Source: Candidatus Latescibacterota bacterium
Lineage (GTDB): Bacteria > Latescibacterota > UBA2968
Length of the DNA: 64,000 nucleotides
Direction: 5' to 3'
Assembly: GCA_965222605.1 (NCBI GenBank)
Contig: OZ244960.1
Coordinates: 3,104,001 to 3,168,000, forward strand
Made by a program: the position numbers and the translations under genes. Shown here in pieces: positions 8,178 through 49,815 of this stretch; positions within the stretch are counted from its first letter, which is position 1, and each line of letters begins with the position of its first letter. The notes under the pieces were generated by a model. It saw nothing but the letters and a program-made list of their open reading frames with translations, made no database searches and was not told where the DNA came from.

Positions 8178-8295
8178 GCAATTCCTGTGCCAAATTATTC
8201 TTTTCTATATTTTACAAGTAGTTATGAAAATTTGTGTCATGAAGGCAGTTCAATAAGTGTCCGATTTTGATACAGTGGTGTCCGAAAATGAACAC
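8178..8295 (-). promoter_or_regulatory. sigma54 promoter + IHF-like site + tandem enhancer dyads (copy 1)
   Basis: Minus strand TGGCACAGGAATTGC (8192-8178) = TGGCAC-N5-TTGC; TTACAAGTAGTTA at 8212-8224; GTGTCCGATTTTGATACA and GTGTCCGAAAATGAACAC at 8257-8295. Confidence 0.85.
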
Positions 8296-8299
8296 TTTA

Positions 8300-8337
8300 A
8301 ATAAAACAGGCACATTGTTTTTAATTCAATGTGCCTG
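8300..8337 (-). terminator. Intrinsic terminator after TA module
   Basis: 11-bp stem CAGGCACATTG/CAATGTGCCTG followed on the minus strand by TTTTATTT; second copy at 37085-37113. Confidence 0.75.
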
Positions 8338-8462
8338 CTGTATTAGCCGTAGAACCATTATTTATCACAATGGGATTACTGCAATTTAGTGGATATGATT
8401 GATGCGCGCAAGTAATTCAGGCAGTTCCTCAATTTCAGTAATAGATAACCCACGCCAGACAA

Positions 8463-8870
8463 TTATACGGTGAGGGGCAAATTGTCTGGCGTGAAAATCT
8501 GAAGGCCAGTTACTCTTGTATAGTGTCGGGTGTTGCGGGTGAGCAGTGGAAGGTCTTGGGAGAGGCAAATACCTGCAATCATTGTATCGGGCAAGCCAAT
8601 CATTTGGCCTGATTGCTGAAGCTGACGACCAAGTGTCGATGCATGGTGTGCAGCGTTGGCGTCGAATGGTAGAATAGAAAAATGCGAGAGTGCTTGAGAA
8701 AATCGTTGATTTTGTTGCTCTGATCGGATCGCCCCAATCTGCAATTCAAAGAGCGAGATGGCTGTTATATGGCAGTGATATTGGCTTGCAACCTAGAGCA
8801 AGACTTCTGACAGGTGTCTTAAGAAGTCGATGATGATGTCGGTATCAACAATCAGGTGGGAAGTTGCCAT
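8463..8870 (-). pseudogene. vapC: VapC/PIN toxin with in-frame amber stop at codon 26
   Basis: ATG 8870 MATSHLIVDTDIIIDFLRHLSEVLL*VASQ...; TAG at 8795-8793; continues in frame to PIN C-terminus (DTMIAGICL...LLTRNTRHY). Confidence 0.85.
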
Positions 8871-9115
8871 TTTGACCACAGTTGATTTCTTTTAGTCTCC
8901 CAATCGTCCAGATCCGAGGGTTTGAAAGCTTCTCGGAGGTGTTCGAGAGATTCAGTGAGAAGCCTAGTTTTTTCGAACGATTGTACTTCAGGTTCAAAAT
9001 CGGCTTTGGGTCTAATTTCAATACGATCTCCTGGGTGGAGTCCCAATTCTTGCTCTGCGGTTTGTTTAGAGATGACAAGATCATCACCCAGGTATTCCAG
9101 TTCTACTGTTGGCAT
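8852..9115 (-). CDS. AbrB/MazE-like antitoxin (VapB)
   Basis: 87 aa; LVISKQTAEQELGLHPGDRIEI AbrB-type motif; overlaps the PIN gene start; GGAG RBS. Confidence 0.75.
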   Translation of the reverse strand: MPTVELEYLGDDLVISKQTAEQELGLHPGDRIEIRPKADFEPEVQSFEKTRLLTESLEHLREAFKPSDLDDWETKRNQLWSKWQLPT

Positions 9116-9303: not shown

Positions 9304-10017
9304 TTAAAGACTCAGGCGTTCTCGAAATTTTTGTGCCTGACGTCGGGAAATTTCAATTTCATAGCCCCCTTTCAACAACACTTTTAGGCTGCCTTGAAAC
9401 CAGGGCTCAATTTTTTCGATATACTGTAAATTGATAATTTGTTGGCGATTGACACGAAAAAATATGCGTTTGTCCAAACGCTCTTCAAGGTGGTTGAGAG
9501 TACGCGGAATAAGAGGTTTGAATTTTTGAAAATAGACCCGCGTGTAATTACCAGAAACTTCGAATAATTGAATGTCTGAGAGTTTGATAAACCAGCACTG
9601 ATCACCGTCTTTTACAAAAACGCGACTCGAATCGGTCAATGCCAGTGCAACAGCTTCATCGGAAGAAGGCGTTTGGGCTTGTAGTTTTTCAATCGCGCTT
9701 GCAAGGCGTTCAGGCTGAACAGGTTTTAGCAAGTAATCGAGCGCATTTACTTCAAAAGCCCGAATGGCATATTCGTCATAGGCGGTTGTAAAAATCACCT
9801 GTGGTACCTGGTCAAGGGTTTCAAGCAGTTCAAAACCGTCTTGCCCGGGCATCTGAATATCGAGGAATATTACATTGACCGATAACCTTTTGAGTTGCTG
9901 CCGTGCTACATCTGCATTTGCGGCTTCACCTACTACTGTGATGGCCTCAAAGGCTTTGAGCAAATGTTTTAACTCCTGACGGGCAAGTCGTGAATCATCG
10001 ACGATCAATGCATTCAT
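9304..10017 (-). CDS. LytTR-family response regulator
   Basis: REC domain (IVDD, FLDIQMP, FTTAYDEYA, YLLKP) + LytTR domain (FFRVNRQQIIN, EISRR). Confidence 0.95.
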   Translation of the reverse strand: MNALIVDDSRLARQELKHLLKAFEAITVVGEAANADVARQQLKRLSVNVIFLDIQMPGQDGFELLETLDQVPQVIFTTAYDEYAIRAFEVNALDYLLKPVQPERLASAIEKLQAQTPSSDEAVALALTDSSRVFVKDGDQCWFIKLSDIQLFEVSGNYTRVYFQKFKPLIPRTLNHLEERLDKRIFFRVNRQQIINLQYIEKIEPWFQGSLKVLLKGGYEIEISRRQAQKFRERLSL

Positions 10018-11087
10018 ATCCGTTGTCCAGTGAGCGGAACCTGAAACTTCGCACAGACCTGATTTTGAGAAATATTTTCAACTGTCAATTGCGTGGTGTT
10101 ACCAAATAAAAGGCGCAGACGTTCTCTGGTATTTTGCAGGCCAATGCCGTCATTTGTTGTGTTGTTTTTCATTTGACCGGTATTTACAATGCAGACCACC
10201 ATAACAGGTTGCTGGATGCCTGTTTGTGCGTCATTGCACGCGGATATGGTTGTCCGAATTGAGATTTCGCCACCATCTGGATGCTGTGCAATGCCGTGCC
10301 GAATAGCATTTTCGACCAGGGTCTGTATGGTCATCGGCGGGATCTCGACTTGTCGTGTTTCCGGTGCAATGTCAAACCGATAACGCAACCTGTCTTCCAA
10401 CTGGGTGGCTTCGAGCAGGAGATAGTTTTTCACAATTGCCAATTCCTCTTTCAACAGCACACTTCTGGTGTTGCTAACCCGTAGCGCGTATCGAAATAGC
10501 TCAGACAATTTTGAGATCATGTCGCGTGCTCGTGCGGGGTTTTCGATGACCAGAGCACGGATATTGTTGAGGCTGTTAAAAAGAAAATGGGGATTTATCT
10601 GGGCTTTTAGTGCCATCAATTCGGCTTCTTTAACCGCTGTTTGCAATTCCCATTTTTCGCGTTCTCCGCGTTTGGTTATGTCAAACATGGAGAACACGAC
10701 ATATAACAGCGACCATATCCAGAGGATAAAGTTCGTGTTGAGTATTTGCAGGCCATACAATTTCCAACTGAAATAATTCTCAACTATATAAAAATAACCA
10801 AGGAACTGAATACTCTGGCTGATAATCGCAATGACAAGATCGGCTATCAACACTCTGATAAACAGTTTCCATAAAGGCAGTGTGACCCAATGCCGCTTTT
10901 TGAATATGGTTCTGAGCAGGTGTGTCCACAACAAAAGTTGCACAGATCCAAAGATAGTGATCCCAAATGCTTGTGCCGTAACAGTCTGAAAAGCAAATAT
11001 GAAAACCGTGTTGAGCAGGCCGTATATTCCCCATCCCAAAATCTGACAGGTCCAATACGCTTTGCTGTGGTTTTTGATCTCAGACAT
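10014..11087 (-). CDS. LytS/YehU-family membrane histidine kinase
   Basis: TM N-terminus; LKAQINPHFLFNSLN, QTLVENAIRHG, GIGLQNTRERL. Confidence 0.95.
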   Translation of the reverse strand: MSEIKNHSKAYWTCQILGWGIYGLLNTVFIFAFQTVTAQAFGITIFGSVQLLLWTHLLRTIFKKRHWVTLPLWKLFIRVLIADLVIAIISQSIQFLGYFYIVENYFSWKLYGLQILNTNFILWIWSLLYVVFSMFDITKRGEREKWELQTAVKEAELMALKAQINPHFLFNSLNNIRALVIENPARARDMISKLSELFRYALRVSNTRSVLLKEELAIVKNYLLLEATQLEDRLRYRFDIAPETRQVEIPPMTIQTLVENAIRHGIAQHPDGGEISIRTTISACNDAQTGIQQPVMVVCIVNTGQMKNNTTNDGIGLQNTRERLRLLFGNTTQLTVENISQNQVCAKFQVPLTGQRI

Positions 11088-11094
11088 ATTGTAC

Positions 11095-12012
11095 TCACCT
11101 GAGAGTCTGGGGCGCAGTTGTTTTGTTAGAGAGGAACGAATCAATGGTTTTAAAGTAGCCCTCTGGATCGTCCCACATAATAAAATGTTTGCCAGTGTCC
11201 GTCATCCATATTTCGCAATTCTCAACATGAGCGTACTGTTTCTGATACATAGCCAGTGAACTTTCTCGCGTTGCGCCATGAGATTGACCCGAAACCCAGG
11301 CTCCCAATACCAGAACAGGGGTTTGTATTTTTTTGATCTCGGTTCGCAAGTCTGTCAAAAACATTTCGTACATTGCTTGTGCAACTGTGTTTGGGTCCGA
11401 AGATAGACTCCACACGACAGCCGTATCTATTTTTGCGGGATCTGTGATCATCATTTTGAGCATAGATGGTGTTGCTTTTTCTCTTTGTTCAGGTGTTTGA
11501 GAGCGTATCCAGGCGCGTGTTTGTTCTGCTGGTGCACGCATAAATTCAACTGTTGCGACCGGATTTTGTAATGCGGGCAAAAAGGGCACTGCATCGACAA
11601 TAATAAGTGATCCTACGCTTTCGGGTACGCTTGCAGCAACCCACAAAGATAGAAAACCACCCAAACTATGTCCTGCAAGGATTGGTTTTTTTAGATCGTT
11701 TTCCTGGATATATGCAATAAGCGCGTCTCTCATGGTTTGCAAATAATGTTCTGTTTGCACGGGGGGTTGTCCGGCAAATCCCGCGAGTGTAAAGACATGG
11801 CATTCAAAGCTATTCTGGTATCGGCTGACTGTTTCGCGCCAAACGTCTCCGGAAGAACTTAGACCAGGAATCAAAATCATCGGATGCCCGGACCCCGTTA
11901 TTTGTACTTTGAAAGGTTGTGCATTATCTGTCTGTGCAGATGCGGGAACTGGTGTTAAAAGCGCGAGGTAGAGTACACTAATTTGCAATATGATGTATTT
12001 CCATTTTGACAT
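11095..12012 (-). CDS. Secreted alpha/beta hydrolase
   Basis: Signal peptide ending ASA; GHSLGG nucleophile motif; GKHFIMWD catalytic His region. Confidence 0.9.
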   Translation of the reverse strand: MSKWKYIILQISVLYLALLTPVPASAQTDNAQPFKVQITGSGHPMILIPGLSSSGDVWRETVSRYQNSFECHVFTLAGFAGQPPVQTEHYLQTMRDALIAYIQENDLKKPILAGHSLGGFLSLWVAASVPESVGSLIIVDAVPFLPALQNPVATVEFMRAPAEQTRAWIRSQTPEQREKATPSMLKMMITDPAKIDTAVVWSLSSDPNTVAQAMYEMFLTDLRTEIKKIQTPVLVLGAWVSGQSHGATRESSLAMYQKQYAHVENCEIWMTDTGKHFIMWDDPEGYFKTIDSFLSNKTTAPQTLR

Positions 12013-16115: not shown

Positions 16116-18518
16116 TCACTCATATCGCAGGGCATCCACGGGATTGGTGCGGGCGACTTTATAGGCTTGATAACTCACCGTGGTCAATGCGATAAATAAC
16201 GCGAGAAAACCACTCAGAACAAATGCCCATATATCCAGATCAATGCGATAGGCAAAATCCTGTAGCCACCTGTTCATTGCGTAATAGGCGATTGGCCAGG
16301 CGATAAGATTTGCAATGCCGACAAGTAATGCAAACTCTTTTGACAACATGAGCACGAGATTAGAAACCGATGCGCCCAATACTTTGCGGATGCCGATTTC
16401 TTTGATGCGCTGTTGTGCGGTGAAAGAGGCGAGTCCGAACAGTCCGAGGCTGGCGACAAAGATGGCGAGGATAGAGAAGAGGCTAAACAGAGTGCCGATC
16501 TGTTCTTCTGTGCGATACAGTTTGTCGTAGTCGTCGTCGAGAAAGAAATAGTCGAATGGCTTATTCGGCGCAATTTCCTTCCATTGTGTCTTCAAAAAAC
16601 CGAGTGTACCTGCGACATCATCGGAACGAATTCGGATAGCAAAATACTCAAACCACTTCTCAACCGTGGTGATAATTAGCGGTTCTATTTGATGATGCAG
16701 GGACTGATAATGAAAGTCTTTCACCACACCTACGACCTCTCCTCTATACTCTACCTTCACCTCACCACCCTGTGGCCATATATTTTCCACTTCCTTACCC
16801 GCACACGAAGTCCATCCAAAGTGTCGCATGGCGGCTTCATTCAGGATGAGTTCTCCCTCTCCGTCATTCATCATATCTTTTGAAAAGTCTCTACCTTCTA
16901 CAAGTTCAAGACCATAAGTCGAGATAAATTCGCGATCAACCACAATCTTGTTCATCGCGGAACGACCATGAGATGTGTCATCACCATGAGCGCGAAAAAA
17001 GCTACCGGCAACACGTCGGCCAGGCACACTTGAAGACTTCGAGGTGTTCAATACATTTGCATACCCCGACAATTGCGATTTATAACGCTCTGTCACACGC
17101 ATACCGGGATAGGGCATCACAATGACGTGTTCTTTATCGAAGCCAAGGTTCTTGTTTTTGATGTAATCCGATTGATGGTAAACGACAACTGTTCCAATAA
17201 TAAGAATGATTGAAATGACAAACTGAAATACGACGAGCGTTTTGCGGGAACTGGAGGTCTTCAATCCTCGCTTCAAGGTGCTTTTTAGCACCTCTACTGG
17301 CTGAAAAGCGGAGAGGAAAAAGGCGGGATAAATCCCAGAGAGCAGCCCTGCAAATAACACCACACCGAGCAAGGTCAACACGACATGCCAATTTCCCGTG
17401 TAATCCAATACCAATTCGCGCTGGATAAAGGCGTTGAATGAAGGGAGTGCGACTTCGACAAAAGCGATGGCAAAAGATAGGGCCAATAACGCCAGCAATA
17501 TGGATTCACCCATAAATTGACGGATTAGTTGCAGGCGGTTGGCGCCAACGACTTTTCTCATGCCGACCTCTTTTGTTCGAGTTGCTGAGCGAGCCGTGGA
17601 GAGGTTCATAAAATTGACACAGGCGAGTATGAGCACAAAAAGGGCAATGATGAGGAAAAGATAAACATAACGAATATCGCTGTTTTCACTCATTTCCGCT
17701 TCTAAACGGGAATGCAAATGAATATCGGTCAGGGGTTGTAGGAAGTAATCGATTTTAAAGCCTGTAGCTTTGCTTTGTCCACCTGTATGTGCCTCAATAA
17801 AGTCGGGCAATTTCGCTTCTAATTCACGAGCAGAATCACTTTGCTGAAGTAGCAAATAGGTATAAAAAACATTCGTTGTCCAATCTGGTTGATGATGGGA
17901 TATAGGAGACGCGAGAAAGTCGAATCGGAAATGAGAGTTGTGAACCGTGTCCTTCAAAACACCTGTCACCTTAAATGCTTTTTTTCTTTCCAATTCATAG
18001 AACGACAGGATTTGACCTATCGGGTTTTGTCCGCCAAAATACTTCTGAGCTACTGCTTCTGTAATCACAACAGAATGGGGCTCCAAAAATACTGTCTCTG
18101 GATCCCCCTTGCTGAGTGGAAAATTGAAGACTTGAAAAAAATTAGGATCGGTGAACCAAAGATTATCTTCAAAGAAGACCTGACCGTGTTGGTCCTCAAC
18201 AAGCGTTCTTGGATCGGTTCCCTCGAAAAACCGCACAGCCTCTATCACTTCGGGATAGTCTTTGACAAGTGCAGGTCCCATCGGAAATGGCGTGACCGGG
18301 GCTTGACGCAGGACCTCGCCGATTTTCACCTTTGCGGCAACCCGATAAATTCGATGCCCGTGTTCGTGGTGCTGGTCGTAGCTCATTTCGTATTGAACAT
18401 AGAGCAAAATGAGGATGCAACAGGCCATGCCAATTGCAAGGCCGAGGATGTTGATCGCAGAGAAGGTTTTGTTTCTGGCGATGTTGCGGACCGCAACTGT
18501 CAGATAATTTTTGATCAT
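16116..18518 (-). CDS. MacB/FtsX-type ABC permease, subfamily C
   Basis: 800 aa; paralog of 31719-34094; permease motifs. Confidence 0.95.
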   Translation of the reverse strand: MIKNYLTVAVRNIARNKTFSAINILGLAIGMACCILILLYVQYEMSYDQHHEHGHRIYRVAAKVKIGEVLRQAPVTPFPMGPALVKDYPEVIEAVRFFEGTDPRTLVEDQHGQVFFEDNLWFTDPNFFQVFNFPLSKGDPETVFLEPHSVVITEAVAQKYFGGQNPIGQILSFYELERKKAFKVTGVLKDTVHNSHFRFDFLASPISHHQPDWTTNVFYTYLLLQQSDSARELEAKLPDFIEAHTGGQSKATGFKIDYFLQPLTDIHLHSRLEAEMSENSDIRYVYLFLIIALFVLILACVNFMNLSTARSATRTKEVGMRKVVGANRLQLIRQFMGESILLALLALSFAIAFVEVALPSFNAFIQRELVLDYTGNWHVVLTLLGVVLFAGLLSGIYPAFFLSAFQPVEVLKSTLKRGLKTSSSRKTLVVFQFVISIILIIGTVVVYHQSDYIKNKNLGFDKEHVIVMPYPGMRVTERYKSQLSGYANVLNTSKSSSVPGRRVAGSFFRAHGDDTSHGRSAMNKIVVDREFISTYGLELVEGRDFSKDMMNDGEGELILNEAAMRHFGWTSCAGKEVENIWPQGGEVKVEYRGEVVGVVKDFHYQSLHHQIEPLIITTVEKWFEYFAIRIRSDDVAGTLGFLKTQWKEIAPNKPFDYFFLDDDYDKLYRTEEQIGTLFSLFSILAIFVASLGLFGLASFTAQQRIKEIGIRKVLGASVSNLVLMLSKEFALLVGIANLIAWPIAYYAMNRWLQDFAYRIDLDIWAFVLSGFLALFIALTTVSYQAYKVARTNPVDALRYE

Positions 18519-18589
18519 GATTTTATCACCTGTTCCATCCTGTTATCTCGTAGCAAGCCATCAGTCCAACCAGCCCCCAGCCCCCATTT

Positions 18590-21089: not shown

Positions 21090-21108
21090 GAGAAGCCTTC
21101 TTAAAAAT

Positions 21109-31299: not shown

Positions 31300-31405
31300 T
31301 TTATACCTCTTAGAAATACAGAATTGCAAAACTACTGGAAATTCATGATATTTAAAATCACGATAATCAAGAAGAAATTCGCATTGCGTGTTGGAGACTT
31401 TTTTT

Positions 31406-31714
31406 ATGAAAACCGAGCGTTGGACAATTCCAGGGATTATCAAAGACGGTGTGGTTGTGCCCCAGAGCAATACCCCTTTGCCCAATGGTATCTATGTAGA
31501 TATTCTCATTCGTCCGGTGGATATGACGCCTGAACTCAAGTCTGAATTAGACCAGTGGGACAAGGCGAGCGATGAAGCATGGGCACTGATAGATCAAGAG
31601 GCAATCTCGCGCAAACAACCAGTTCCAAAATTCGGCAGCGCAAAGGGGCTTGTTAAAATGTCAGATGATTTTGACGAACCTCTTGAAGATTTTGAACGCA
31701 GGTGGGCGATCTGA
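31406..31714 (+). CDS. Orphan, probably chimeric antitoxin-like protein (C-terminus DUF2281-like)
   Basis: GGAG RBS; C-terminal PKFGSAKGLVKMSDDFDEPLEDF is DUF2281-like; N-terminus IPGIIKDGVVVP..LPNG resembles another small antitoxin type. Confidence 0.6.
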   Translation: MKTERWTIPGIIKDGVVVPQSNTPLPNGIYVDILIRPVDMTPELKSELDQWDKASDEAWALIDQEAISRKQPVPKFGSAKGLVKMSDDFDEPLEDFERRWAI

Positions 31715-31718
31715 TAAC

Positions 31719-34094: not shown

Positions 34095-34108
34095 GATCTT
34101 ATCCCTTT

Positions 34109-36520: not shown

Positions 36521-36642
36521 TTTGTACCTCCATTAGCCAGTCTTGAGTGGTCAGCAGTACTCATGTTGTGCTGCGCGTGCCGCCGGTCCTAATCCCCACA
36601 GGCGAGATGTCCACTTAACACACCAGCCCCCAGTCCCTGTTT

Positions 36643-36924
36643 TTACTCATATCGCAAGGCGTCAATTGGATTGGAACGCGCTGCGCGAATGGCCTGCATG
36701 CTCACGGTTCCAAAGGCGATGATCAGAGCCATTATTGCGCTCGCAACAAATGGCACTACATTCAGGTCTGTCTGATAGGCAAACCCGGAGAGCCAGTTGT
36801 GCATCAGATAGTAGGCGATTGGCCAGGCGATGCCGTTGGCGAGAAGAACGAGCAATAGAAATTCGCGCGAGAGTAGCATGACCAGATGCGATGTAGATGC
36901 GCCCAGTACCTTCCGTACGCCAAT
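36643..36924 (-). pseudogene. 3' fragment of subfamily B permease fused to promoter cassette
   Basis: Begins abruptly at IGVRKVLGAS, directly after the sigma54 leader sequence AGGTAGAGTGAAC also seen at 8150. Confidence 0.88.
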
Positions 36925-36952
36925 AGGTAGAGTGAACGTATGGAAATAGTAA

Positions 36953-37070
36953 GCAATTCCTGTGCCAAAAACTTCTTTTCTATGTTTTACAGGTAGTTAT
37001 GAAAATTTGTGTCATGAGCACAGTTCAATAAGTGTCCGATTTTGATACAGTGGTGTCCGAAAATGAACAC
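36953..37070 (-). promoter_or_regulatory. sigma54 promoter + IHF-like site + enhancer dyads (copy 2)
   Basis: TGGCACAGGAATTGC at 36967-36953; dyad block 37027-37070 identical to 8252-8295. Confidence 0.85.
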
Positions 37071-37077
37071 TTAATAC

Positions 37078-37113
37078 AAAAAACAGGCACATTGTTTTGA
37101 TTTCAATGTGCCT
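37078..37113 (-). terminator. Intrinsic terminator (copy 2)
   Basis: AGGCACATTG/CAATGTGCCT stem followed by a T-run on the minus strand. Confidence 0.7.
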
Positions 37114-37220
37114 AATAATAGCTAATTTTTTTGATCCAATAAGTTCGCGTTCAAGTATCCAATTGGTCCCAATCTGGTGGGGTAAGGAACATGACTACAC
37201 TGCTGGTATTTTTAGTATGC

Positions 37221-40268: not shown

Positions 40269-40294
40269 TGGTTTCTCCTCTGTATAGGAATTGA

Positions 40295-42724
40295 TTACTC
40301 ATATCGCAGTGCATCAATCGGGTTAGAACGCGCTGCGCGAATGGCTTGCGTGCTCACGGTTCCAAATGCGATGATCAGAGCCATTATCGCGCTTGCAACA
40401 AATGGCAATACATTCAGGTCTGTCTGATAGGCAAACCCGGAGAGCCAGTTGTGCATTAGATAGTAGGCAATTGGCCAGGCGATGCCGTTGGCGAGAAGAA
40501 CGAGGAATATAAATTCGCGCGAGAGTAGCATCACCAGATGTGGTGTGGATGCGCCCAGGACCTTCCGCACGCCAATTTCTTTGGTGCGAGATTGAACCAT
40601 AAACGCGGCCAGTCCAAACAGTCCCAAACACGCTACAAAAATTGCGAGCAACGAAAATATCCCGAGCATTTTGCCGGTGAGTTGTTCGTTGAAATAGACC
40701 CAATCAATGATCTCGTCCATGAAGTGATATTCAAAGGGCGCGTCCGGTACAAAGCGTTTCCACTGTGTTTCGAGAAAGGACAGGGTTTGCGCAGTGTTTT
40801 CTGGTCGGATGCGCAGGACCAGCGAATAAAACATCTTCCAGCGGGCCAAAAATCCCATGGGGGCTATTTCTTCTCGTAGTGTCAAATTGTGGTAATCTTT
40901 TACGACCCCAATTACTATCAGGGATAGGTTGTCATATGCTGGTAACACAATCTGTTTGCCAATCGGATCGTCCTCCCAGCCGAGCAGGCGCACGGCTGTT
41001 TCGTTCAAAATAATCGCCTGAGAGGTATCGCTGGCAACATCGGCTGAAAAGGCGCGACCGCGAAGCACGGGAATATCAAATGTTTCAAAGAATGAATCAT
41101 CGACCTCGTTTATGCGAAATGTCCGTTCTTTTGTGGGGTCCCCATCGGGCCAGGCCAGTCGCAGTCGTCCGCTGTATCCCGTAATGTTGTATCGCAGTGC
41201 CGACGCGCTGAGGATATTGGGATGTTCGAGAAAGACCTGTTTGACCATAAGGTGGCGTGCCGAAAGACGTTTTTGTGGGTTGGATTCTTTCGAAAAATCG
41301 CGGACAAAGATCGGCAAACTCACAATGTGATCGCGTGCAAAACCCATCTCTTTGGTTTCTATAAATCTCAGTTGTTGATAAACTATTAGGGTGCAGATTA
41401 CCAGCAAAATGGACATGCCAAACTGAAAAACCACGAGTCCTTTCTTCAGCCCATTGGAACCCGATGAGGAAGATGCACTGCTTTTTAATGCTGTTACCGG
41501 GCTAAAAGAGGAGAGGAAAAATGCCGGATACCATCCCGCCAGCAATCCGACTGCTAATGTTAGTGCCAATACCGCTGGCGCACCTGCCATAACCATAGCC
41601 GCGTTGAGGTGCAGATCGCCGCGCACAAATTGGTTGAATAAGGGCAGGCATAACTCGACCAGTGCGAGGGCAATCAGCAGGGCGGAACAGGTTAAAAGCA
41701 GGGATTCAGTTAAAAATTGAACCACCAATTGTGGACGATGCGCGCCAACCACTTTTCGCACACCTACTTCGCGCTTGCGGGTGACAGCGCGTGCAGTTGC
41801 CAGATTTGTAAAGTTCACGCATGCAATGACCACTACGATTAGTCCGATAGCCGTTAGCATGTAAATTTTTTGAATGGGGCTGTCGGCAGTTGGGTTAAAA
41901 TCGGATTCGCCATACAGGTACATGCGGTGCAGGGGCTGCAAATAGTAGGTGTTTTTTTTCGCAACTTCATCCCCCATATACTGTTTGATCAACGGCTGCA
42001 TTTTCGTTTGTAGGATTTCTGCGTTTTGTCCTGCTTTTAATAGCACAAAGGTTTTTACCGGACGCCACGATTGCGTGGGTCGCCATAGTGTCCACACCTC
42101 TTGCGTTTCTTCTACGGGCGTCAGAGTGGTTGAGAGTATTTCAAAATAAAGGCCTGATGAGAGATGTGGTGCTTTTACGATGCCGGTGACTGTGTACTCG
42201 CCAGGGAAACTGACGTTGTCGATTGAGAATGTTTGGCCCATTGGGTCAATATCGCCAAATAAGTGTTGCGCCATGTCGTCGGTAATGACTACAGAGTAGG
42301 GCGTGCGAAACGCAGTCTCTAAGTCTCCTTTTATAAGGGGAAAATCAAATACGTCTAAAAAGTTGTCATCTACCAGTCCGAACTGATATTGACCCTCGCG
42401 CTCGCCGTATTGTGCAGATACAGTCCATCGCCAGATACGCACGGTTGTTTCTACTTCGGGAAATGTTTCTTCCAACACGGGACCGAGTGCGCCTGATGTA
42501 CCTTCTGTGTATGATGTTTGCGTACTGCCGCGTTGTTCCCGAATCACTTTGTAAATGCGGTCGCCCAGGGTGTGGGAGCGATTTACTGCAAATTCCTGTT
42601 GGATATACAAGAGGATCAAAATGCCACACGCTAACCCAATGGCAAGTCCCAATACATTGATGGAGGTGTACAATTTGTGCCGCATCAGATTGCGGATCGC
42701 AACGGTCAGATAATTTTTGATCAT
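40295..42724 (-). CDS. MacB/FtsX-type ABC permease, subfamily B (only intact copy)
   Basis: 809 aa; MIKNYLTVAIRNLMRHKLYTSINVLG. Confidence 0.95.
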   Translation of the reverse strand: MIKNYLTVAIRNLMRHKLYTSINVLGLAIGLACGILILLYIQQEFAVNRSHTLGDRIYKVIREQRGSTQTSYTEGTSGALGPVLEETFPEVETTVRIWRWTVSAQYGEREGQYQFGLVDDNFLDVFDFPLIKGDLETAFRTPYSVVITDDMAQHLFGDIDPMGQTFSIDNVSFPGEYTVTGIVKAPHLSSGLYFEILSTTLTPVEETQEVWTLWRPTQSWRPVKTFVLLKAGQNAEILQTKMQPLIKQYMGDEVAKKNTYYLQPLHRMYLYGESDFNPTADSPIQKIYMLTAIGLIVVVIACVNFTNLATARAVTRKREVGVRKVVGAHRPQLVVQFLTESLLLTCSALLIALALVELCLPLFNQFVRGDLHLNAAMVMAGAPAVLALTLAVGLLAGWYPAFFLSSFSPVTALKSSASSSSGSNGLKKGLVVFQFGMSILLVICTLIVYQQLRFIETKEMGFARDHIVSLPIFVRDFSKESNPQKRLSARHLMVKQVFLEHPNILSASALRYNITGYSGRLRLAWPDGDPTKERTFRINEVDDSFFETFDIPVLRGRAFSADVASDTSQAIILNETAVRLLGWEDDPIGKQIVLPAYDNLSLIVIGVVKDYHNLTLREEIAPMGFLARWKMFYSLVLRIRPENTAQTLSFLETQWKRFVPDAPFEYHFMDEIIDWVYFNEQLTGKMLGIFSLLAIFVACLGLFGLAAFMVQSRTKEIGVRKVLGASTPHLVMLLSREFIFLVLLANGIAWPIAYYLMHNWLSGFAYQTDLNVLPFVASAIMALIIAFGTVSTQAIRAARSNPIDALRYE

Positions 42725-42771
42725 GGTCTTATCTCCTGTTCCGTCCTGTTATTCCGCAGCAGGCGCGACGA

Positions 42772-45099
42772 TTACTCATCTCTCAAAGCGTCCGCCGGGT
42801 TTGCGCGTGCGGCTTTGAGGGTCTGGGTGGTGACGGTTGTGAGTACGACGAGGAACATGGCCAGACTGCCGAGTAAGAAGGCGCCAATACCCAATTCGGT
42901 GCGGTAGGCGAAGGTTTGTAACCATTGATTGGTCGCGTAATAAGCGATAGGGAATGCGATGAGGCTTGATAGGGCGATGTAGAGGATAAATTCCCGCGAG
43001 AGCAGGGATAAGATTTGAGATTGCGATGCGCCCAGGACTTTGCGAATGCCAATTTCTTTGGTGCGTCTGGTAGTGGCGAGTGCCGCCAGTCCAAATGCGC
43101 CGAGTGCAGCGATGAAGATGGCGAATCCTGTGGCGTATTGGATCATGAGATTCCAGCGTTCTTCTTTTTTGTATTGTCTGTCTATGTTTTCATTGAGAAA
43201 CGAAAATCTGAATGCATGGTCGGGGGCGACTTCAGCCCATTTTTCTTTTATAAATGCGATGGTGCCCGGCACGTTTTCGGGGCGAATGCGGACTAATAAG
43301 CGTACGGTAATTGCACGGAGGGATAGAACGGCGGGTTCAACTTCGTGATGCAAAGAGCGAAAATGGAAATTTTGAACAACGCCAATGATGGTCTTGTCTC
43401 GTCCATGTTTGATTGTTTTGCCAACGGGATCTTCTATGCCGAGTTTTTTGACGAGTGCTTCGTTGACAATGATTGATTTTTTAGCATCTGTTGGAAATTC
43501 TCTGTCGTATTCTCGACCTGCAACGAGTTTGATGTCGAGTGTTCTGAACAAATCGTAATCAATGTAGATGTTCTCAACGTATTGCCTTGGATTTCCTTCA
43601 TAAGTCACATCAGCCCGGGAACTCATGGTGTTTGTAAAATAATGATTAAGCCAGGTTGTGCTGATCACTGAGGGATGTGACAGCAGGGCATCCCGAAAAA
43701 CGTTTGGAAAGGTTTTGCTTTCTCTTTCCAGTGCATGGGTCTGAATGGCGACAACATGTTCGGTTTGATACCCCAGTGGTTGGGCTCGCAGGAATGTGAG
43801 TTGTTTGCTCATCATCAAGGTGACAATGATGAAAAATATGGATAGGGCAAACTGAAAAATGACCAGTACTTTGCCAAAACGATTGCCCGTTTTAATTTGC
43901 AACCGGCTTGTTATGATTTGGGTTGGCTGCAGGCGGGATAGGATAAAGGCGGGATACCCCCCTGCTGTGATGCCAACGAAGCTGACCAGGAGAATGAGGA
44001 AGGCGAGTGTTGTGGTGTTGAGGCCGTCGCTCATGGATAGGGATTTATCAGCCAGATTGTTGAATGTTGGCAACGTGAGTTCTGCTATGGCAATGCCAAT
44101 GATGAGCGCGATGAAGATGAGCAAGAGGGATTCGCCGATAAATTGGTTTGCAATCTGCATGCGTCCCGCGCCGACGACTTTTCGCAAGCCGACTTCCCGC
44201 GCCCGCGTTGCCTGTCGTCCGAGGGTCAGGGTGATGAAGTTGACACAGGCGATAAACAGGACGAGGATTGCAATGCCCGATAAGATGTATGAATAAACTG
44301 GATTGCTGCTATTATATACCCCCAGGCTTTGAGCGAAATGCATTTGGGTGATAGGTAGGAGTTTGAGTTCTTTCTCGCTTTTTTCGCCCCACCAGATTTT
44401 GGTCAATCTGGGAAATTGTTGTTCGACACTATTTGGGGATACATTCGGGGGGAGCATCATATACGTAGTCAGGTAGTGCGTATTCCATTGGTTTTTGGCC
44501 TGGACCCAGGATGCCCGTTCAAATGGCAGCAGTACGTCAAATTGAATTGTGGAGTTTTTGGGCACGTTTTTTATAATGCCCGTGATGGTGTAGTTTTGAA
44601 TTTCCTCTCCGCGTTGAATAGGAAGCAGTTCTCCAACCGGATTGGCGTTGTTGAAATACTTTTGAGCAATTTTTTCTGTTATGAGTGCTGAATATTTGTC
44701 CTGGAGTGCTTGAGCGGGATCGCCGTGAATGACTGAGAAAGAAAAAATGTCGAGGAAGTTGGGATCGACAACCCCCAAATGCGCTTGAAAAGCGAGATCT
44801 TCTGTACCAATTTTTCCCCCGGTACTCCTGAAACGAACGGTCTGCATGTCTGGGAATGCTTCTGTTAATGCGGGTCCGAGGGGATCTGGTGTTATACCAG
44901 AAACCCGATAGATGCGGTCGGCGTTTTCGTGAAAGGTGTCATAAGTCCATTCGTTGTGGACAAAGAGGGAGGTGAGGATGCAAAAGGCGAGGCCGATGGC
45001 AATGCCAATGATGTTGATGGCAGAGTAGATGCGGTGCCTGGCGAGGTTGCGGATCGCTGTTTTCAGGTAGCTACTGAGTAAAGATATTTCAGAGAACAT
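42772..45099 (-). CDS. MacB/FtsX-type ABC permease, subfamily A
   Basis: 775 aa; permease motifs. Confidence 0.95.
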   Translation of the reverse strand: MFSEISLLSSYLKTAIRNLARHRIYSAINIIGIAIGLAFCILTSLFVHNEWTYDTFHENADRIYRVSGITPDPLGPALTEAFPDMQTVRFRSTGGKIGTEDLAFQAHLGVVDPNFLDIFSFSVIHGDPAQALQDKYSALITEKIAQKYFNNANPVGELLPIQRGEEIQNYTITGIIKNVPKNSTIQFDVLLPFERASWVQAKNQWNTHYLTTYMMLPPNVSPNSVEQQFPRLTKIWWGEKSEKELKLLPITQMHFAQSLGVYNSSNPVYSYILSGIAILVLFIACVNFITLTLGRQATRAREVGLRKVVGAGRMQIANQFIGESLLLIFIALIIGIAIAELTLPTFNNLADKSLSMSDGLNTTTLAFLILLVSFVGITAGGYPAFILSRLQPTQIITSRLQIKTGNRFGKVLVIFQFALSIFFIIVTLMMSKQLTFLRAQPLGYQTEHVVAIQTHALERESKTFPNVFRDALLSHPSVISTTWLNHYFTNTMSSRADVTYEGNPRQYVENIYIDYDLFRTLDIKLVAGREYDREFPTDAKKSIIVNEALVKKLGIEDPVGKTIKHGRDKTIIGVVQNFHFRSLHHEVEPAVLSLRAITVRLLVRIRPENVPGTIAFIKEKWAEVAPDHAFRFSFLNENIDRQYKKEERWNLMIQYATGFAIFIAALGAFGLAALATTRRTKEIGIRKVLGASQSQILSLLSREFILYIALSSLIAFPIAYYATNQWLQTFAYRTELGIGAFLLGSLAMFLVVLTTVTTQTLKAARANPADALRDE

Positions 45100-45151
45100 T
45101 GGTCTCTCCTGTTTATGGTGTGAAATAAACTTTGTATTTCAGCAGGTGCAG

Positions 45152-45733
45152 TCAGCCCGCCCAACCCCCGACCTGTTGTTTTTCCAACGCGCGTTTTAAC
45201 TGATGGCGTCCTCGGTAGAGCCAGATTTTCACTGTGCCGAGGGGGACTTGCATTTCCCACACGATTTCGCGGTAGGACAGTTCTTTTATGTAGCGAAGCC
45301 ACATTGCGCGTTGTTGTACTTTGGGCAATGTGCGTAAGCCCTGTGTTAAGAGTTGATGGCGTTCCTTTTGTATGACGCTATCTTCTGGCGTTGTCAGAGT
45401 AATTGGTTCGGGCATTTGTTGTGCTGCGGTTTGCAGACCATTTTTTCGGGATAGTCGAGACCGAAGGTGTGATCGCCCGACGTTGAAGGCAATGCGCGTT
45501 AGCCAGGTTGTGAATGCCGAGTCGCCGCGAAAATGGCGCAGGCCCTGAAAGACTTTCATGAATACCACCTGGATCAAGTCATCGGCTTCCTCGCGGTCCT
45601 GCACATATCGCCCGACAATGGCGCGTACGCGATTCTGGTGCAGATAGTAGAGTTTGCCAAACGCGCTTTCGTCGCCGGCTTTTATCATGAGGATCAATTG
45701 TACATCGTTTTCTATGTCTGATCGTTTATTCAT
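45152..45733 (-). CDS. ECF sigma-70 factor
   Basis: Region 2 (AFGKLY...DLIQVVF...FRGDSAFTTWLTRIA) and region 4 (LSYREI...VPLGTVKIWLYRGR); overlaps the upstream permease stop. Confidence 0.92.
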   Translation of the reverse strand: MNKRSDIENDVQLILMIKAGDESAFGKLYYLHQNRVRAIVGRYVQDREEADDLIQVVFMKVFQGLRHFRGDSAFTTWLTRIAFNVGRSHLRSRLSRKNGLQTAAQQMPEPITLTTPEDSVIQKERHQLLTQGLRTLPKVQQRAMWLRYIKELSYREIVWEMQVPLGTVKIWLYRGRHQLKRALEKQQVGGWAG

Positions 45734-48095
45734 ACCGCAGTGCCTCCACGGGGTTCATTTTTGCCGCTTTCACAGCTTGCAGGCTCACTGTTCCGATTAC
45801 GACCAATAGTGTCAGTACACCGCCCAGCACGAACGCTCCAATCCCCAGCTCAATCCGATACGCGAAGTCCGATAGCCATTTGCTCATTGCCCAGTAGGCG
45901 ACTGGCCAGGCGAGTACATTTGCAATGGCTACCAGCAGAACGAATTCGCGCGATAGCAAACTCACGACGTTTGTGATGCTGGCGCCCAATATTTTGCGAA
46001 TGCCAATCTCTTTGGTGCGCCGGGTTACGGCGAGTGCTGTCAATCCAAATGCTCCCAGACACGCTATAAAAATGGCAAATAGGGTTCCGTATCCGATCAT
46101 GCGATGCCATCGCTCTTCGGTTCGGTATTGGCGATCGATGCCTTCGTCGAGGAATGAATAACGGAATTCAGGGGATTGTGTTATGGCTTCCCATTGTTCT
46201 TTCATAAATGACAGTGTGCCGGGGATATCTTCGGCATGCACCCGGATCAGCAGTCGGCTAAAGTATTGATTTGCTGGGTCGCATTTCAGGAGTGCGGGGC
46301 CAATTTTGTGATGGAGAGAGCGAAAATGAAAATCTTTCACGACGCCAATCACTGTCATATCAGTAAAAAATTTCAGTGTTTTGCCGAGCGGTGGTCCCGG
46401 TCCCAATTGCCTGGCCAGGGTTTCATTGATAATTACAGATGCAGCAGGGTCTGTTACAAATTCTCGTGAATAATTTCGCCCTTCGATCAATTTGATGTCG
46501 AGGGTTGGTACAAAGTCATAATCGACAAAGAAGACCTCCACGCCGCTTAAGCTCGTTCCATCATGTACCACATTCCCGCGCGACTGGTATCCATTGCGCA
46601 TCATGTGATATATTGGGGTTACACCGAGAATTGCGTGATGGGATAACAGGGCGTCCCGATAGGTTTCAATGCCTTTTGGTCCCAGGTCTCGCAGCTTGCT
46701 GAGGCGACTGACGGCAATCAAATGTTCGCTGTCAAATCCCAGGGGTTTGGTCCGCAAATAGTCGAGTTGAGAGGTCATGATGAGGGCACAGATGACCAGA
46801 ACCGCAGACATCGCGATCTGGAAGACTACGAGAAACTGGCTGAATAATCCCGCACTGACAATTTTCAATCTGCCTTTGAGTACGTGAATTGGCATGAAGC
46901 CGGAGAGGACAAAGGCTGGATAGGTGCCTGCAAGCAGGCCGATGATCAAAGTTAGACCCATTAGCGAGGCAAATGCCGGACCATCCAGATGTGCAACCAA
47001 AGATAGTTTTTGCGCCATGAGGTTGTTGAACAATGGCAGTAAAAGTTCTGATAGGGCGAGTCCGATCACAAAGGCTATGAGGCTCAAGAGAACGGATTCT
47101 GTGAGAAATTGTACAATGACCTGGGGCTTGTGTGCGCCAACGACTTTGCGTATGCCGATTTCCCGCGCCCGAGAAGCCGATCGTCCCAGAGCGAGGGTCA
47201 TAAAGTTCACGCAGGCGACAAATAGTACGAGAGCTGTAATGCACAACAGGATGTAGCTGTATGCCGGGTCCGTGGCGGATTCGGGTGCGCGGATATTTGG
47301 ATTGAAATGGACATCTGCAAGCGGCTGCAACTTCATCTCATGGTTTTCACCCATGATGGGCCACTTCCAGTTTAAAAGAAAACGCGGAAATGACTTTTCC
47401 AGGTCTTCGGCGCGAACCTGATTGTGAAGCAAGACGTAAGTACTGGTGTCACTTATGTAATTCCACGAGTTGAGCGCGTCTTCGACATTCTCATAGGACT
47501 GAATGCAGTCGAATTGAATGCTGGATGTTTCGGGGATGTCTTTTACGATGCCTGTAATCAGAGCCTGATGGATTTTTGAGTTTCTTGTGAAAGAGATCGA
47601 TTTCCCCATTGGGTCGGTGTTGCCGAAGAATTTTTGAGCGGCTGTTTCTGATATAATAATGGCGTCTTTGCGATTTAGTGCTGTTGCGGGGTCGCCTTTT
47701 ATCAGGGGAAATGAGAATACATCCCAGAAATCCGGATCGACATAAATAATGCGTTCTTGAAATGAATGGTCGCCATATTGGAGTGTGAGAGAAGTGGTGT
47801 TAATTCTCACGACGTGCTGCATTTGTGTGGGGAATGCTTCTGCCAACTTTGGACCGAGAGGACCCGGCATGGCAGCTGAGGCATCGCTGCCTTCGCCTAC
47901 TTCTCCTTTATTGTAAATGCGATAAATCCGATTTGCTTTTTCGTGGAATGCGTCAAAGGACCATTCGTGTCGTATGTACAAGAATGTCAAGATGCAAAAC
48001 GCAATGCCGATTGCCAGGCCAGTAATGTTAATCGCCGAATACACTTTGTAGCGGACGAGATTGCGGTACGCCACGGTCAGATAGTTGCGGAACAT
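45726..48095 (-). CDS. MacB/FtsX-type ABC permease
   Basis: 789 aa; permease motifs; AAGGAG RBS. Confidence 0.95.
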   Translation of the reverse strand: MFRNYLTVAYRNLVRYKVYSAINITGLAIGIAFCILTFLYIRHEWSFDAFHEKANRIYRIYNKGEVGEGSDASAAMPGPLGPKLAEAFPTQMQHVVRINTTSLTLQYGDHSFQERIIYVDPDFWDVFSFPLIKGDPATALNRKDAIIISETAAQKFFGNTDPMGKSISFTRNSKIHQALITGIVKDIPETSSIQFDCIQSYENVEDALNSWNYISDTSTYVLLHNQVRAEDLEKSFPRFLLNWKWPIMGENHEMKLQPLADVHFNPNIRAPESATDPAYSYILLCITALVLFVACVNFMTLALGRSASRAREIGIRKVVGAHKPQVIVQFLTESVLLSLIAFVIGLALSELLLPLFNNLMAQKLSLVAHLDGPAFASLMGLTLIIGLLAGTYPAFVLSGFMPIHVLKGRLKIVSAGLFSQFLVVFQIAMSAVLVICALIMTSQLDYLRTKPLGFDSEHLIAVSRLSKLRDLGPKGIETYRDALLSHHAILGVTPIYHMMRNGYQSRGNVVHDGTSLSGVEVFFVDYDFVPTLDIKLIEGRNYSREFVTDPAASVIINETLARQLGPGPPLGKTLKFFTDMTVIGVVKDFHFRSLHHKIGPALLKCDPANQYFSRLLIRVHAEDIPGTLSFMKEQWEAITQSPEFRYSFLDEGIDRQYRTEERWHRMIGYGTLFAIFIACLGAFGLTALAVTRRTKEIGIRKILGASITNVVSLLSREFVLLVAIANVLAWPVAYWAMSKWLSDFAYRIELGIGAFVLGGVLTLLVVIGTVSLQAVKAAKMNPVEALRYE

Positions 48096-48139
48096 TTTGT
48101 TCTCCTTAGCTGTCCCAGGTGGTCAAGACGCAGCTTGTC

Positions 48140-49576
48140 TTACAGGAGCGGAGAGATTAGAGTGAGAGCGACTCGAAAAGAGTGATTCGTCATCATAACC
48201 TTTCCTTGAGGATCGATCAGGACATAGTGCGGATAGCCTCCAATGTTATACATCTTTGACACTTTGTTATTGTTGTCTATAGTGTCCAGGATCTGCGGCC
48301 ATTCAATGTGAGACTTCTCCACATAATTCTTGACTTTGTCTCTTCTGGTATCGGCACTGATGCCGATAATCTCGAAGTTATCCCGGTCGAATTTTTCAGA
48401 TAGTGCTTTCAATCTGGGCGTATCTTTGATACATGGCCCGCACGAGGTGTACCAGAAGTCCAACAAAACGTATTTACCCTTGAAATTTGAAAGCTGAAGA
48501 TTCTTTCCGTCTATATCGGTAACTGCAAAATCCGGTGCTATAGAACCTCGCTTGATCTCAATCTTTGTTGGGACGGAGACATCTGATTTTCTGAGGATAA
48601 TTTCATCACCAGAGGCAGAGATGCTTTTAATTTCAAATGTGGTACCACCGATATTAAAGGGTTTGTCAACGTCGTAATATTCCGCTGATTCGAGTTCACT
48701 CCCGAATATGCCATCGCGATCGAGGTCCCATAGTATTCTGTTAAAAATTTTGGTAGAGTAGGTCGCGAAGCGTCCTTTGTTGTAGATCGCCAGGTCGTAT
48801 AATTGACCATCTATTTCTACTCGTCCTTTTCTGTATTCAGTTACGCTTCCCCTGAATTTTGGGAAGGTTGGATCTTTCCGCTTTTTCACATATTGCGTAT
48901 ATCTATGAACCTCCACGTCCACCCTTTGGGTTTTGGCGATTCTACCATCGTTATATTCAAATTCAACGGTGGCATTTGCCTTTTGCCCATGTGGAAGTTT
49001 CCAAGGTAGAATGTAGCTCAGCAGACGATATACTGTACCGAAGTTCTCTGGATATATCGCATGTTCATCGGAGAAGTCTTCATTGTTGTTGGTATCAAAA
49101 ATGAAAATAGTATTTCCATTCCGATCCCGGCCATTCACAAAGGATACTTTGCTATCTACAGGTACTCCTAAGTCATACGGTTCCCAGAGTTCTCGATCGG
49201 TCTCTTCTTGATAAAGGAGAATGCACAACTGTAGAGCACTCAACTCAAATACCCCATAGAATTCGATGGTCATTTCCGGCGGAAATCCTCGCAGGCTCTT
49301 CTCGATCGGTTTTCGACTTATCCAATCGTGATCATGAAAGTCAATCGATGATGACTCGAATCTCGATAATGCTTGTGCGCTTACAGGTACACGCTCCAGG
49401 GGGATCACAACTTCATCCATGTTAGCTGAGTCAAATCGCGCAACGGATGGGTTATCTGAGGAATCCTGGGCATTCTTGGAAAGGCCGAAGAGTGTGGAAT
49501 GGACAGAGAGTGAGAAGAGTATAAGCAGACCAGTGAGGATGCTGTTCTTTCGGAAAGTCGAGCGGATGGAGATCAT
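48140..49576 (-). CDS. Exported TlpA-family thiol-disulfide oxidoreductase with unknown N-terminal domain
   Basis: Signal/TM N-terminus; C-terminal APDF...KGKYVLLDFWYTSCGPC...YPHYVLIDPQGK; AGGAGG RBS. Confidence 0.88.
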   Translation of the reverse strand: MISIRSTFRKNSILTGLLILFSLSVHSTLFGLSKNAQDSSDNPSVARFDSANMDEVVIPLERVPVSAQALSRFESSSIDFHDHDWISRKPIEKSLRGFPPEMTIEFYGVFELSALQLCILLYQEETDRELWEPYDLGVPVDSKVSFVNGRDRNGNTIFIFDTNNNEDFSDEHAIYPENFGTVYRLLSYILPWKLPHGQKANATVEFEYNDGRIAKTQRVDVEVHRYTQYVKKRKDPTFPKFRGSVTEYRKGRVEIDGQLYDLAIYNKGRFATYSTKIFNRILWDLDRDGIFGSELESAEYYDVDKPFNIGGTTFEIKSISASGDEIILRKSDVSVPTKIEIKRGSIAPDFAVTDIDGKNLQLSNFKGKYVLLDFWYTSCGPCIKDTPRLKALSEKFDRDNFEIIGISADTRRDKVKNYVEKSHIEWPQILDTIDNNNKVSKMYNIGGYPHYVLIDPQGKVMMTNHSFRVALTLISPLL

Positions 49577-49697
49577 GGTTTCCTCCTGAGGATTTAAAGA
49601 GCGGTTACGGTTGTAAGATCTGCGTGGATATTCTCAACCGCTCACAATTTCAGGCGACACTTCCTTTAGGTGCGTATTCTTTGTGCCGATTTTATAT

Positions 49698-49815
49698 GCA
49701 ATAATCGTGCCAAAAGATACAAATGTTGAAATAACAATAGGTTACGAAAAACTGCTTAAAATTAACGGACGAATAAGTGTCCGAATTTGATACAGTAGTG
49801 TCCGAAAATGAACAC
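49698..49815 (-). promoter_or_regulatory. sigma54 promoter + IHF-like site + enhancer dyads (copy 3)
   Basis: TGGCACGATTATTGC at 49712-49698; TAACAATAGGTTA at 49732-49744; dyad block 49772-49815 with 2 mismatches to copy 1. Confidence 0.85.

Follow-up and report, generated by a model that had tools for sequence, protein, structure and literature searches.

A probable sigma-54 promoter and enhancer cassette at the head of MacB/FtsX permease arrays in Candidatus Latescibacterota

The stretch of 64,000 nucleotides analyzed here, referred to as the window (G000:C1:3104001-3168000, where G000 is a single-contig genome of 6.34 Mb), contains three copies of a cassette which is composed of a 44-bp block, an A/T-rich middle element and a -24/-12 box. 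The three cassettes head three arrays of permease genes on the same, reverse strand. We consider it probable that the cassette is a sigma-54 promoter with its enhancer, worked by a two-component regulator of the NtrC family and controlling dispersed transporter units. From three local copies, the finding widens to a class-wide regulon for which a two-component regulator is nominated.

Elements, spacing and conservation of the cassette

Exactly three TGGCAC-N5-TTGC boxes occur in the window, all on the reverse strand; 0.21 are expected from shuffled sequences, and none of 100 shuffles gave three. All of them represent perfect sigma-54 consensus sequences with GG and GC doublets ten bases apart. 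The block is found three times with 0 mismatches to a degenerate pattern (0.00 expected from shuffles). Read on the gene strand, it is GTGTTCATTTTCGGACAC-NNN-TGTATCAAAWTCGGACAC-TTATT, followed by 59 bases and the -24/-12 box, and in each of the three copies it starts at a distance of 60 bp from the T of TGGCAC. The middle element, T-x-x-CA-A-N4-TTA, is located 20 bp from the box in each copy (starts 8212, 36987, and 49732) and reads TAAC-N4-TTGTW on the gene strand. For boxes, blocks and middle elements alike, coordinates and spacings are exactly those given in a preliminary description of this DNA. Transcription from sigma-54 promoters starts approximately 11-13 nt after the GC, and the predicted starts below follow this rule. 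The elements and the hairpins upstream of two of them are:

8252..8295, reverse strand: predicted upstream activating sequence of cassette 1 (pattern match, two units)
8212..8224, reverse strand: A/T-rich element of cassette 1, TAA-N4-TTG-TA, possible IHF/HU bend site
8178..8192, reverse strand: sigma-54 box TGGCAC-N5-TTGC of cassette 1, putative start near 8166
37027..37070, reverse strand: predicted upstream activating sequence of cassette 2
36987..36999, reverse strand: A/T-rich, bend-site-like element of cassette 2
36953..36967, reverse strand: sigma-54 box of cassette 2, predicted start near 36941
49772..49815, reverse strand: predicted upstream activating sequence of cassette 3, 42/44 identical to copy 1
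49732..49744, reverse strand: A/T-rich, bend-site-like element of cassette 3
49698..49712, reverse strand: sigma-54 box of cassette 3 with different N5, predicted start near 49686
8298..8339, reverse strand: terminator-like hairpin with U-run directly upstream of cassette 1 (-20.6 kcal/mol, z -6.15, 0/200 shuffles as stable)
37078..37114, reverse strand: terminator-like hairpin with U-run upstream of cassette 2 (-15.8 kcal/mol, z -3.58)

The three copies are of unequal value as evidence. Copies 1 and 2 agree at 51 of 59 spacer positions, and their homology extends far upstream; as recent duplicates, they count as one witness, and copy 3 is the informative one. Compared with copy 1, it retains 42/44 positions of the block and 11/15 of the box, where only the N5 differs and the ten specified positions are identical, yet the spacer agrees at 28/59 positions and the 100-nt flanks at 27/100 and 29/100. 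Copy 3 has thus diverged outside the elements while keeping them, as previously described.

The block consists of two units, which in cassette 1 read TGTTCA-N4-CGGACA and TGTATCA-N4-CGGACA on the gene strand, with CGGACAC repeating at 21 bp. An initial designation as TGT-N10-ACA dyads fits the first unit; the second is TGT-N11-ACA. Unit 1 appears as TGTTCA/CGGACA in 23 of 37 aligned representatives (see below) and is a perfect palindrome in genome G029 and in the copy at C1:5037385 of G000, while the halves of unit 2 have only TGT/ACA in common. To judge from these letters, the units seem to resemble tandem direct repeats with a 21-bp period as much as true dyads.

The block occurs 12 times in G000 at up to 6 substitutions, and a 13th, more diverged copy at C1:5037385 combines a perfectly palindromic first unit (TGTCCG-N4-CGGACA) with a perfect box at the usual distance. 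Hence the cassette is triplicated within the window, but not by a local triplication, since 13 cassettes exist in the genome, three of them in the window; another is found just 1.9 kb beyond its left end. In ten of the first 12 copies, TGGCA[CT]-N5-TTGC lies 102-103 nt from the start of the block; an eleventh has CGGCAC at this place, and the twelfth has TAGCAC-N5-TTGC about 100 nt further on. This last arrangement, at G000:C1:1045547, recurs in its orthologs (L049, L054, L056, L057, L087, L090, L097, L172), where the TAGCAC-N5-TTGC box lies about 98 nt farther from the block; the subtype has an A/T-rich insert between block and box and is kept across the genus.

All 13 cassettes of G000 face transporter genes, namely duplicated permeases, an adaptor-ATPase-permease-ATPase-permease operon, a lone MacB-type ATPase, and an ABC exporter followed by a permease. 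Among 44 MacB_PCD N-terminal matches examined, 28 are found at a cassette of their own strand or within the 30 kb that follow it, and sixteen are without a cassette in the 30 kb upstream on their strand. The cassettes would thus govern much of the permease family but not all of it; co-transcription along whole arrays is presumed.

Relatives were searched with a core pattern of the block, allowing at most 1 mismatch in 41 genomes or at most 2 mismatches in a sample of 168 genomes of the phylum. The stricter search revealed the motif in 33/41 genomes, including all 20 other members of the genus with 1-12 copies each and, in the sister family f2, 11 of 13 genomes of genus g6 and the single genome of g8. 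With up to 2 mismatches, 55/168 genomes matched, distributed on families f1 (23/30), f2 (18/22), f3 (1/3), and f4 (12/76), with 0/36 in ten other families, and a reversed-pattern control gave 6 hits. The motif is therefore kept beyond recent duplicates, the matter on which the preliminary description had staked its reading. Among the matches listed, almost all named records with the motif are labelled Candidatus Latescibacterota. A spread across phyla was rejected: hits labelled Gemmatimonadota or Poribacteria carry the same cassette types as the loci of relatives and are taken to reflect labelling differences and not separate phyla. One Clostridia hit was discounted, being without a box where 1-2 chance hits are expected.

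In the GC-rich f2 genomes the spacers are unrecognizable, yet block, CTAAGTACCTGTAAAA element and TGGCACGCCCGTTGC keep their spacing. In f4 a single 17-mer (TGTATCACCAGCGGACA), present twice with a 21-bp offset, makes up the block, and 8 of 11 instances examined have the box 60-61 nt downstream. When a box is called at 9 or more of 10 matches, the 141 unique among 167 pooled instances show a gap between block and box of 57-61 nt in 123 cases, of 68-69 nt, i.e., one helical turn more than usual, in 3, and of 145-159 nt in 11. The predicted enhancer consequently ends 57-61 nt before the box, a distance that grows by about 10 or about 98 nt in the variants. When 37 representatives with spacers less than 70% alike, drawn from three families of one class in records labelled Ca. 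Latescibacterota, are aligned, only three parts prove conserved: the block, TAA-N4-TTG-N2-AAA, and TTTGGCAC-N5-TTGC. Block positions outside the search pattern are conserved as well (GTGTTCATT, ATC, and the trailing CTT).

The middle element had been taken for an IHF site. What stands is a conserved A/T-rich element, with TAA-N4-TTG kept in the 37 representatives. The consensus of IHF is WATCAA-N4-TTR, and the window elements match a C-A-A-N4-T-T-A core but not the full consensus. G000 encodes four proteins of the HU/IHF family. The IHF label is not justified; the element may be bent by a DNABII protein or curved intrinsically.

A candidate regulator and the weighing of alternative readings

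Sigma-54 itself is available: the rpoN gene, whose presence the preliminary description had proposed to check, was found in G000 (PF04552, 200 bits, 515-aa open frame, C1:30295-30768). The enhancer-binding protein had been predicted to be encoded elsewhere, and in the window no sigma-54 activator domain was found, either in the 45 long open reading frames of 103 listed or in a six-frame search of the genome. The latter revealed 18 strong PF00158 (sigma-54 activator) genes outside the window. One of them, at C1:3440753-3441157, is broken by a TAG (229-aa open frame) and probably is a pseudogene.

A search for activators near other motif copies, also suggested earlier, singled out one gene. In four of eight Pfam-scanned f2 loci, the block lies in a divergent intergenic region between the permease promoter and a gene of the architecture REC-Sigma54_activat-AAA_lid-HTH_8, which encodes a regulator of about 458 aa and is followed by a histidine kinase gene. 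By coordinates, the same divergent adjacency at distances of about 140-490 bp is found in 14 of 15 g6 genomes, in G029 (g8), in 3/3 genomes of g9, a genus of the window's own family, and in G145 and G117 of f4, whose regulators are 62-65% identical. It does not extend to G089 (f3), and the distance in G130 is approximately 1 kb. In locus L060 of G025 (9925-9953, reverse strand), a sigma-70-like promoter TTGACA-17-CATTAT (10/12) is directed at the regulator gene. About 27 bp separate the end of the -35 hexamer from the block, and the surrounding 40 nt show conservation across g6 genomes. Owing to this proximity, the block may also autoregulate the regulator.

The ortholog in G000 is located at C1:2913169-2914539, about 190 kb from the window, and is 77% identical over its full length, with the next paralog at 39.5%. 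The kinase ortholog (2911836-~2913176) is 73% identical and translationally coupled downstream of the regulator; upstream lies a lactonase gene rather than a permease gene. Within the order, the ortholog is present in 20/20 genomes of g1, 3/3 of g9, and 15/15 of g6, and these are also the genera with the motif; genera g2, g3, g4, g5, g7, and g10 have neither. The regulator keeps the receiver aspartate, and its HTH recognition region is near-invariant among the orthologs and different in the paralogs. It scores below every NCBIfam equivalog cut-off. The kinase has two hydrophobic N-terminal helices joined by 3-4 residues, followed by PAS-like, DHp and ATPase parts; it is without a periplasmic domain, and the layout is conserved in 5/5 aligned orthologs. 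From adjacency in relatives and co-occurrence, G000:C1:2913169-2914539 most likely encodes the regulator acting on the cassettes. Of the earlier proposal that one activator switches on the whole permease regulon, the single activator thus gains a nominee through divergent adjacency in relatives, while the word "whole" falls with the 16/44 permease genes without a cassette.

On these grounds we propose the following mechanism. RNA polymerase with sigma-54 would form a closed complex on TGGCAC-N5-TTGC. The phosphorylated NtrC-family regulator, composed of REC, a sigma-54 AAA+ ATPase and a Fis-type HTH_8 domain, would be recruited about 60 bp farther upstream by two units of 16-17 bp (TGTYCR or TGTATCR, N4, CGGACA), which a period of 21 bp places on one face of the helix. 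The A/T-rich middle element would be bent, either by a protein of the HU/IHF family or intrinsically, such that the ATPase ring could touch sigma-54 and open the promoter. One signal would switch on 13 dispersed transcription units. The putative regulon comprises about 28 duplicated orphan MacB/FtsX permeases (ADOP/DarB-like), three MacB-type ATPases, an adaptor, ABC exporters and thiol-disulfide oxidoreductases, whose products together would be parts of tripartite efflux pumps.

Several points weigh against this proposal. The evidence is sequence-based, and the only RNA run consists of short contigs from relatives, 90-95% alike, which are uninformative on the transcription start; with a 0.05 share of words it is evidence neither way. 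The regulator adjoins no cassette in G000 or in congeners with listed hit coordinates, so that within this genus the link between regulator and block rests on relatives. G046 and G042 reveal one motif hit each and no regulator ortholog was found in either, both genomes being fragmented; the box in G042 is weak (7/10 matches). The sigma-54 contact loop reads GAFTDA instead of the canonical GAFTGA, with F and T kept; GAFTDA is found in 5/5 aligned orthologs and 1/3 paralogs. No gene of G000 reaches the IHF alpha or beta cut-offs, the best scores being 75.3 and 82.3 bits versus 120.25 and 119.95. The block units are only partly palindromic, and in f4 they are plain tandem direct repeats of an asymmetric 17-mer; such an arrangement is typical of LytTR sites and uncommon for HTH domains of the dimeric Fis type. 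Finally, the counted instances are related paralogs and orthologs rather than independent samples, and they were chosen by a pattern that fixes part of the block.

The repeat layout leads to a competing assignment, in which the block is the site of another regulator and the adjacent NtrC-type gene merely shares the intergenic region. The leading candidate is the LytTR protein of the following pair:

9304..11144, reverse strand: LytTR response regulator (9304-10017) and PF06580 histidine kinase (10014-11144), rival binder

The direct repeat of CGGACAC with its 21-bp period recalls LytTR sites such as those of AgrA and ComE, and the pair is encoded 1 kb upstream of cassette 1, with counterparts at the orthologous locus of congeners. 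Such loci make up 5 of 175 cassette loci, however; LytTR genes are missing from the other 170 and from all eight Pfam-scanned f2 loci. LytTR proteins are furthermore without the AAA+ activator that sigma-54 promoters need, and the block is placed 60 bp upstream of the -24 box and not against a -35 element. The LytTR pair is judged unlikely as binder on its rarity and its inability to activate sigma-54. An NtrC-type gene, by contrast, is adjacent in three families with 62-77% identical orthologs. The binder might also be another of the approximately 18 enhancer-binding proteins, and we regard this whole group of assignments as unlikely.

The box could also be a real sigma-54 promoter accompanied by a block of a different kind, i.e., a repressor operator, an insulator, or a hotspot of recombination or duplication travelling along. 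A terminator hairpin immediately precedes the block in many copies, in relatives the block abuts the sigma-70-like promoter of the regulator gene and could act there, and cassettes 1 and 2 were duplicated along with toxin-antitoxin remnants. Against this, the fixed gap of 57-61 nt and the variants longer by one helical turn fit looping on one face of the helix, and such helically phased spacing favors an enhancer over a repressor or insulator. Moreover, the alignment of 37 sequences holds no other conserved element able to serve as the obligatory enhancer, and we judge this explanation slightly less probable again. Least credible, indeed very improbable, is a residue of recent segmental duplication without selection, with consensus matches by chance. 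It draws on the 51/59 spacer bases and the long upstream homology shared by copies 1 and 2, and it is contradicted by copy 3 with its retained elements despite a 28/59 spacer, by the identical elements and spacing amid wholly different spacers and GC content in f2 and f4, and by the control pattern (6 hits in 168 genomes versus matches in 55). An NtrC-type enhancer paired with a sigma-54 promoter hence is the explanation we prefer.

Gene arrays and surroundings of the window cassettes

The genes behind the three cassettes are arranged as follows:

1..8106, reverse strand: array 1, with permeases at 5662-8106 and 3160-5640, a TPR protein at 855-3179, and a permease from 681 that leaves the window
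16116..36925, reverse strand: array 2, with a permease C-terminal remnant at ~36650-36925 and permeases at 34109-36520, 31719-34112, and 28885-31485
Array 2, continued, reverse strand: IS66-interrupted permease at 24795-26501 / 28077-28964, with the transposase at 26547-28016
Array 2, continued, reverse strand: two ABC exporter genes at 21109-24785, a split permease at 18590-21158, and a permease at 16116-18518
37917..49576, reverse strand: array 3, with a thioredoxin/ResA-like protein at 48140-49576, a permease at 45726-48095, and an ECF sigma factor at 45152-45733
Array 3, continued, reverse strand: permeases at 42772-45099, 40295-42724, and 37917-40268

The permeases are proteins of about 800 aa that unite two MacB_PCD+FtsX halves, e.g., at 3160-5640, 16116-18518, and 45726-48095. 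The arrays bear traces of rearrangement. Directly after the promoter of cassette 2, a 93-codon in-frame C-terminal permease fragment with its stop codon occupies 36650-36925 (reverse strand), and the next intact permease starts at 36520; it looks as if cassette 2 was fused to the 3' end of a permease gene by deletion or recombination. The permease that follows the cassette at G000:C1:1045547 is split by a DDE_Tnp_1_4 transposase (L022:4240-5604).

Two kinds of accompanying genes recur. ECF sigma genes are found inside array 3 (45152-45733) and just upstream of cassettes in L022 and L023. Thioredoxin/ResA-like thiol-disulfide oxidoreductases occur in cassette-driven units of both G000 and G029 (48140-49576; L029:11089-11781; L062:7727-9082), which hints at an involvement of disulfide chemistry in the substrates or the pumps.

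Upstream of the blocks, the terminator-like hairpin, which has a loop of 9 nt when the strand is folded, is found before other copies of the cassette-1 subtype too; cassette 3 is without such an upstream hairpin. Resembling a rho-independent terminator, it would insulate the cassette from transcription of the preceding array. Farther upstream, duplicated remnants of a PIN-type toxin gene and of the small partner preceding it lie before cassettes 1 and 2 (8470-8900 and 37230-37830, reverse strand). An in-frame stop interrupts the copy at 8470-8900, and the one at 37230-37400 carries an internal deletion. On the other side, the first ~40 nt after the box (…ATACGTTCACNCTACCTGAAT…; window positions 8120-8177 and 36925-36952) are kept among cassettes of one subtype in several congeners and could be a leader element or just shared ancestry. 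A further gene of the window, at 14776-15858 on the forward strand, encodes a 360-aa protein with a strong match to the XendoU endoribonucleases (PF09412, E 4.9e-63), a family best known in eukaryotes and nidoviruses.

Comparison with known systems and meaning

The proposed layout is closest to the NtrB/NtrC-glnAp2 and NifA-nifH-type promoters, which have the same -24/-12 promoter, a start preceded at approximately 85-130 bp by tandem activator sites, an intervening bend site, and the same pairing of a REC-AAA+-HTH_8 regulator with a kinase. The differences concern the site, here TGTATCR-N4-CGGACA with N10 or N11 between TGT and ACA and with asymmetric, tandem units, and the targets, which are transporter arrays instead of nitrogen genes. 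The regulator stays below the cut-offs for NtrC (319 vs 558.6 bits) and NifA (299 vs 528.85). Its top NCBIfam scores come from systems of the same architecture, PEP-CTERM PrsK/PrsR, AtoS/AtoC and ZraS/ZraR, yet fall well short of their cut-offs (PEP_resp_reg (PrsR) 369 vs 502.6; AtoC 360 vs 714; ZraR 321 vs 760). The kinase scores 147 bits against the AtoS cut-off of 646 and has a bare two-helix hairpin where PrsK, AtoS and ZraS have a periplasmic or other sensor domain. With promoters regulated by LytTR proteins, the repeat period is shared; the placement 60 bp from a sigma-54 box and the scarcity of nearby LytTR genes (5/175) differ.

Among the targets, the permeases share with ADOP (TIGR03434) and DarBCD the length of about 800 aa, the two MacB_PCD+FtsX halves and, in most cases, the lack of an ATPase next to them; a DarD-like ATPase, encoded separately, and a DarC-like adaptor are also present here. 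Two permeases tested, of approximately 13 in the window, scored 289.2 and 308.6 bits versus an ADOP cut-off of 622.3, and scores for DarB (84-108 vs 700), DarD (the lone ATPase, 239 vs 375) and DarC (the adaptor, 190 vs 450) were likewise below the cut-offs. By their domains, permeases, ATPase and adaptor appear to be like parts of tripartite MacB-type exporters, and membership in the named families is not reached by score. We know of no established function, partner ATPase or signal for duplicated orphan MacB/FtsX (ADOP-like) permeases. One conserved enhancer-promoter would tie about 28 of them to ATPases, an adaptor, ABC exporters and thiol-disulfide oxidoreductases, with one two-component system indicated as the switch, and an uncultured lineage would gain a concrete, testable regulon.

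The kinase invites a second comparison. BceRS-BceAB of Firmicutes has the same two-helix kinase with almost no outer loop controlling FtsX-type ABC transporters. There the regulator is OmpR-type and the permease BceB-type, whereas here an NtrC-type regulator acts with sigma-54 and the permeases are duplicated MacB-type proteins of 2x4 helices. A tentative and rather doubtful extension is that the kinase, which has no sensor domain itself, reads the activity of the permeases under its control, i.e., flux sensing of the Bce type with an NtrC/sigma-54 output, and that the 13 cassettes act together as a single inducible, combinatorial system of efflux. Three cassette-driven ATPases and one adaptor would then serve more than 25 interchangeable orphan permease paralogs, and the lineage, host-associated or marine, would have a wide and evolvable repertoire for use against peptides or other toxic compounds. 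A link between permease and ATPase by regulon instead of operon would also explain why ADOP-type permeases lie away from ATPase genes.

The sigma-54 mechanism itself is textbook knowledge; as far as our literature searches reach, the regulon, its site and its regulator are undescribed. We found no paper that joins Latescibacteria with sigma-54, and searches on FtsX with sigma-54 enhancer-binding proteins, on an RpoN/MacB regulon and on Latescibacterota in sponges gave nothing relevant. The nearest precedent is a computational survey of 2025, which reports an enrichment of sigma-54 promoters at COG0577 FtsX-like permeases in Gammaproteobacteria, Opitutia and Bacteroidia, links COG1136 ATPases to such promoters as well, and calls the permease link the first of its kind (PMC12316311). 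The class of target genes is the same; the portions of the survey considered here name no enhancer or cognate activator and do not mention Latescibacterota. That association of sigma-54 with FtsX-type permeases is recent and purely statistical, and the cassette described here adds detail to it at the level of the enhancer.

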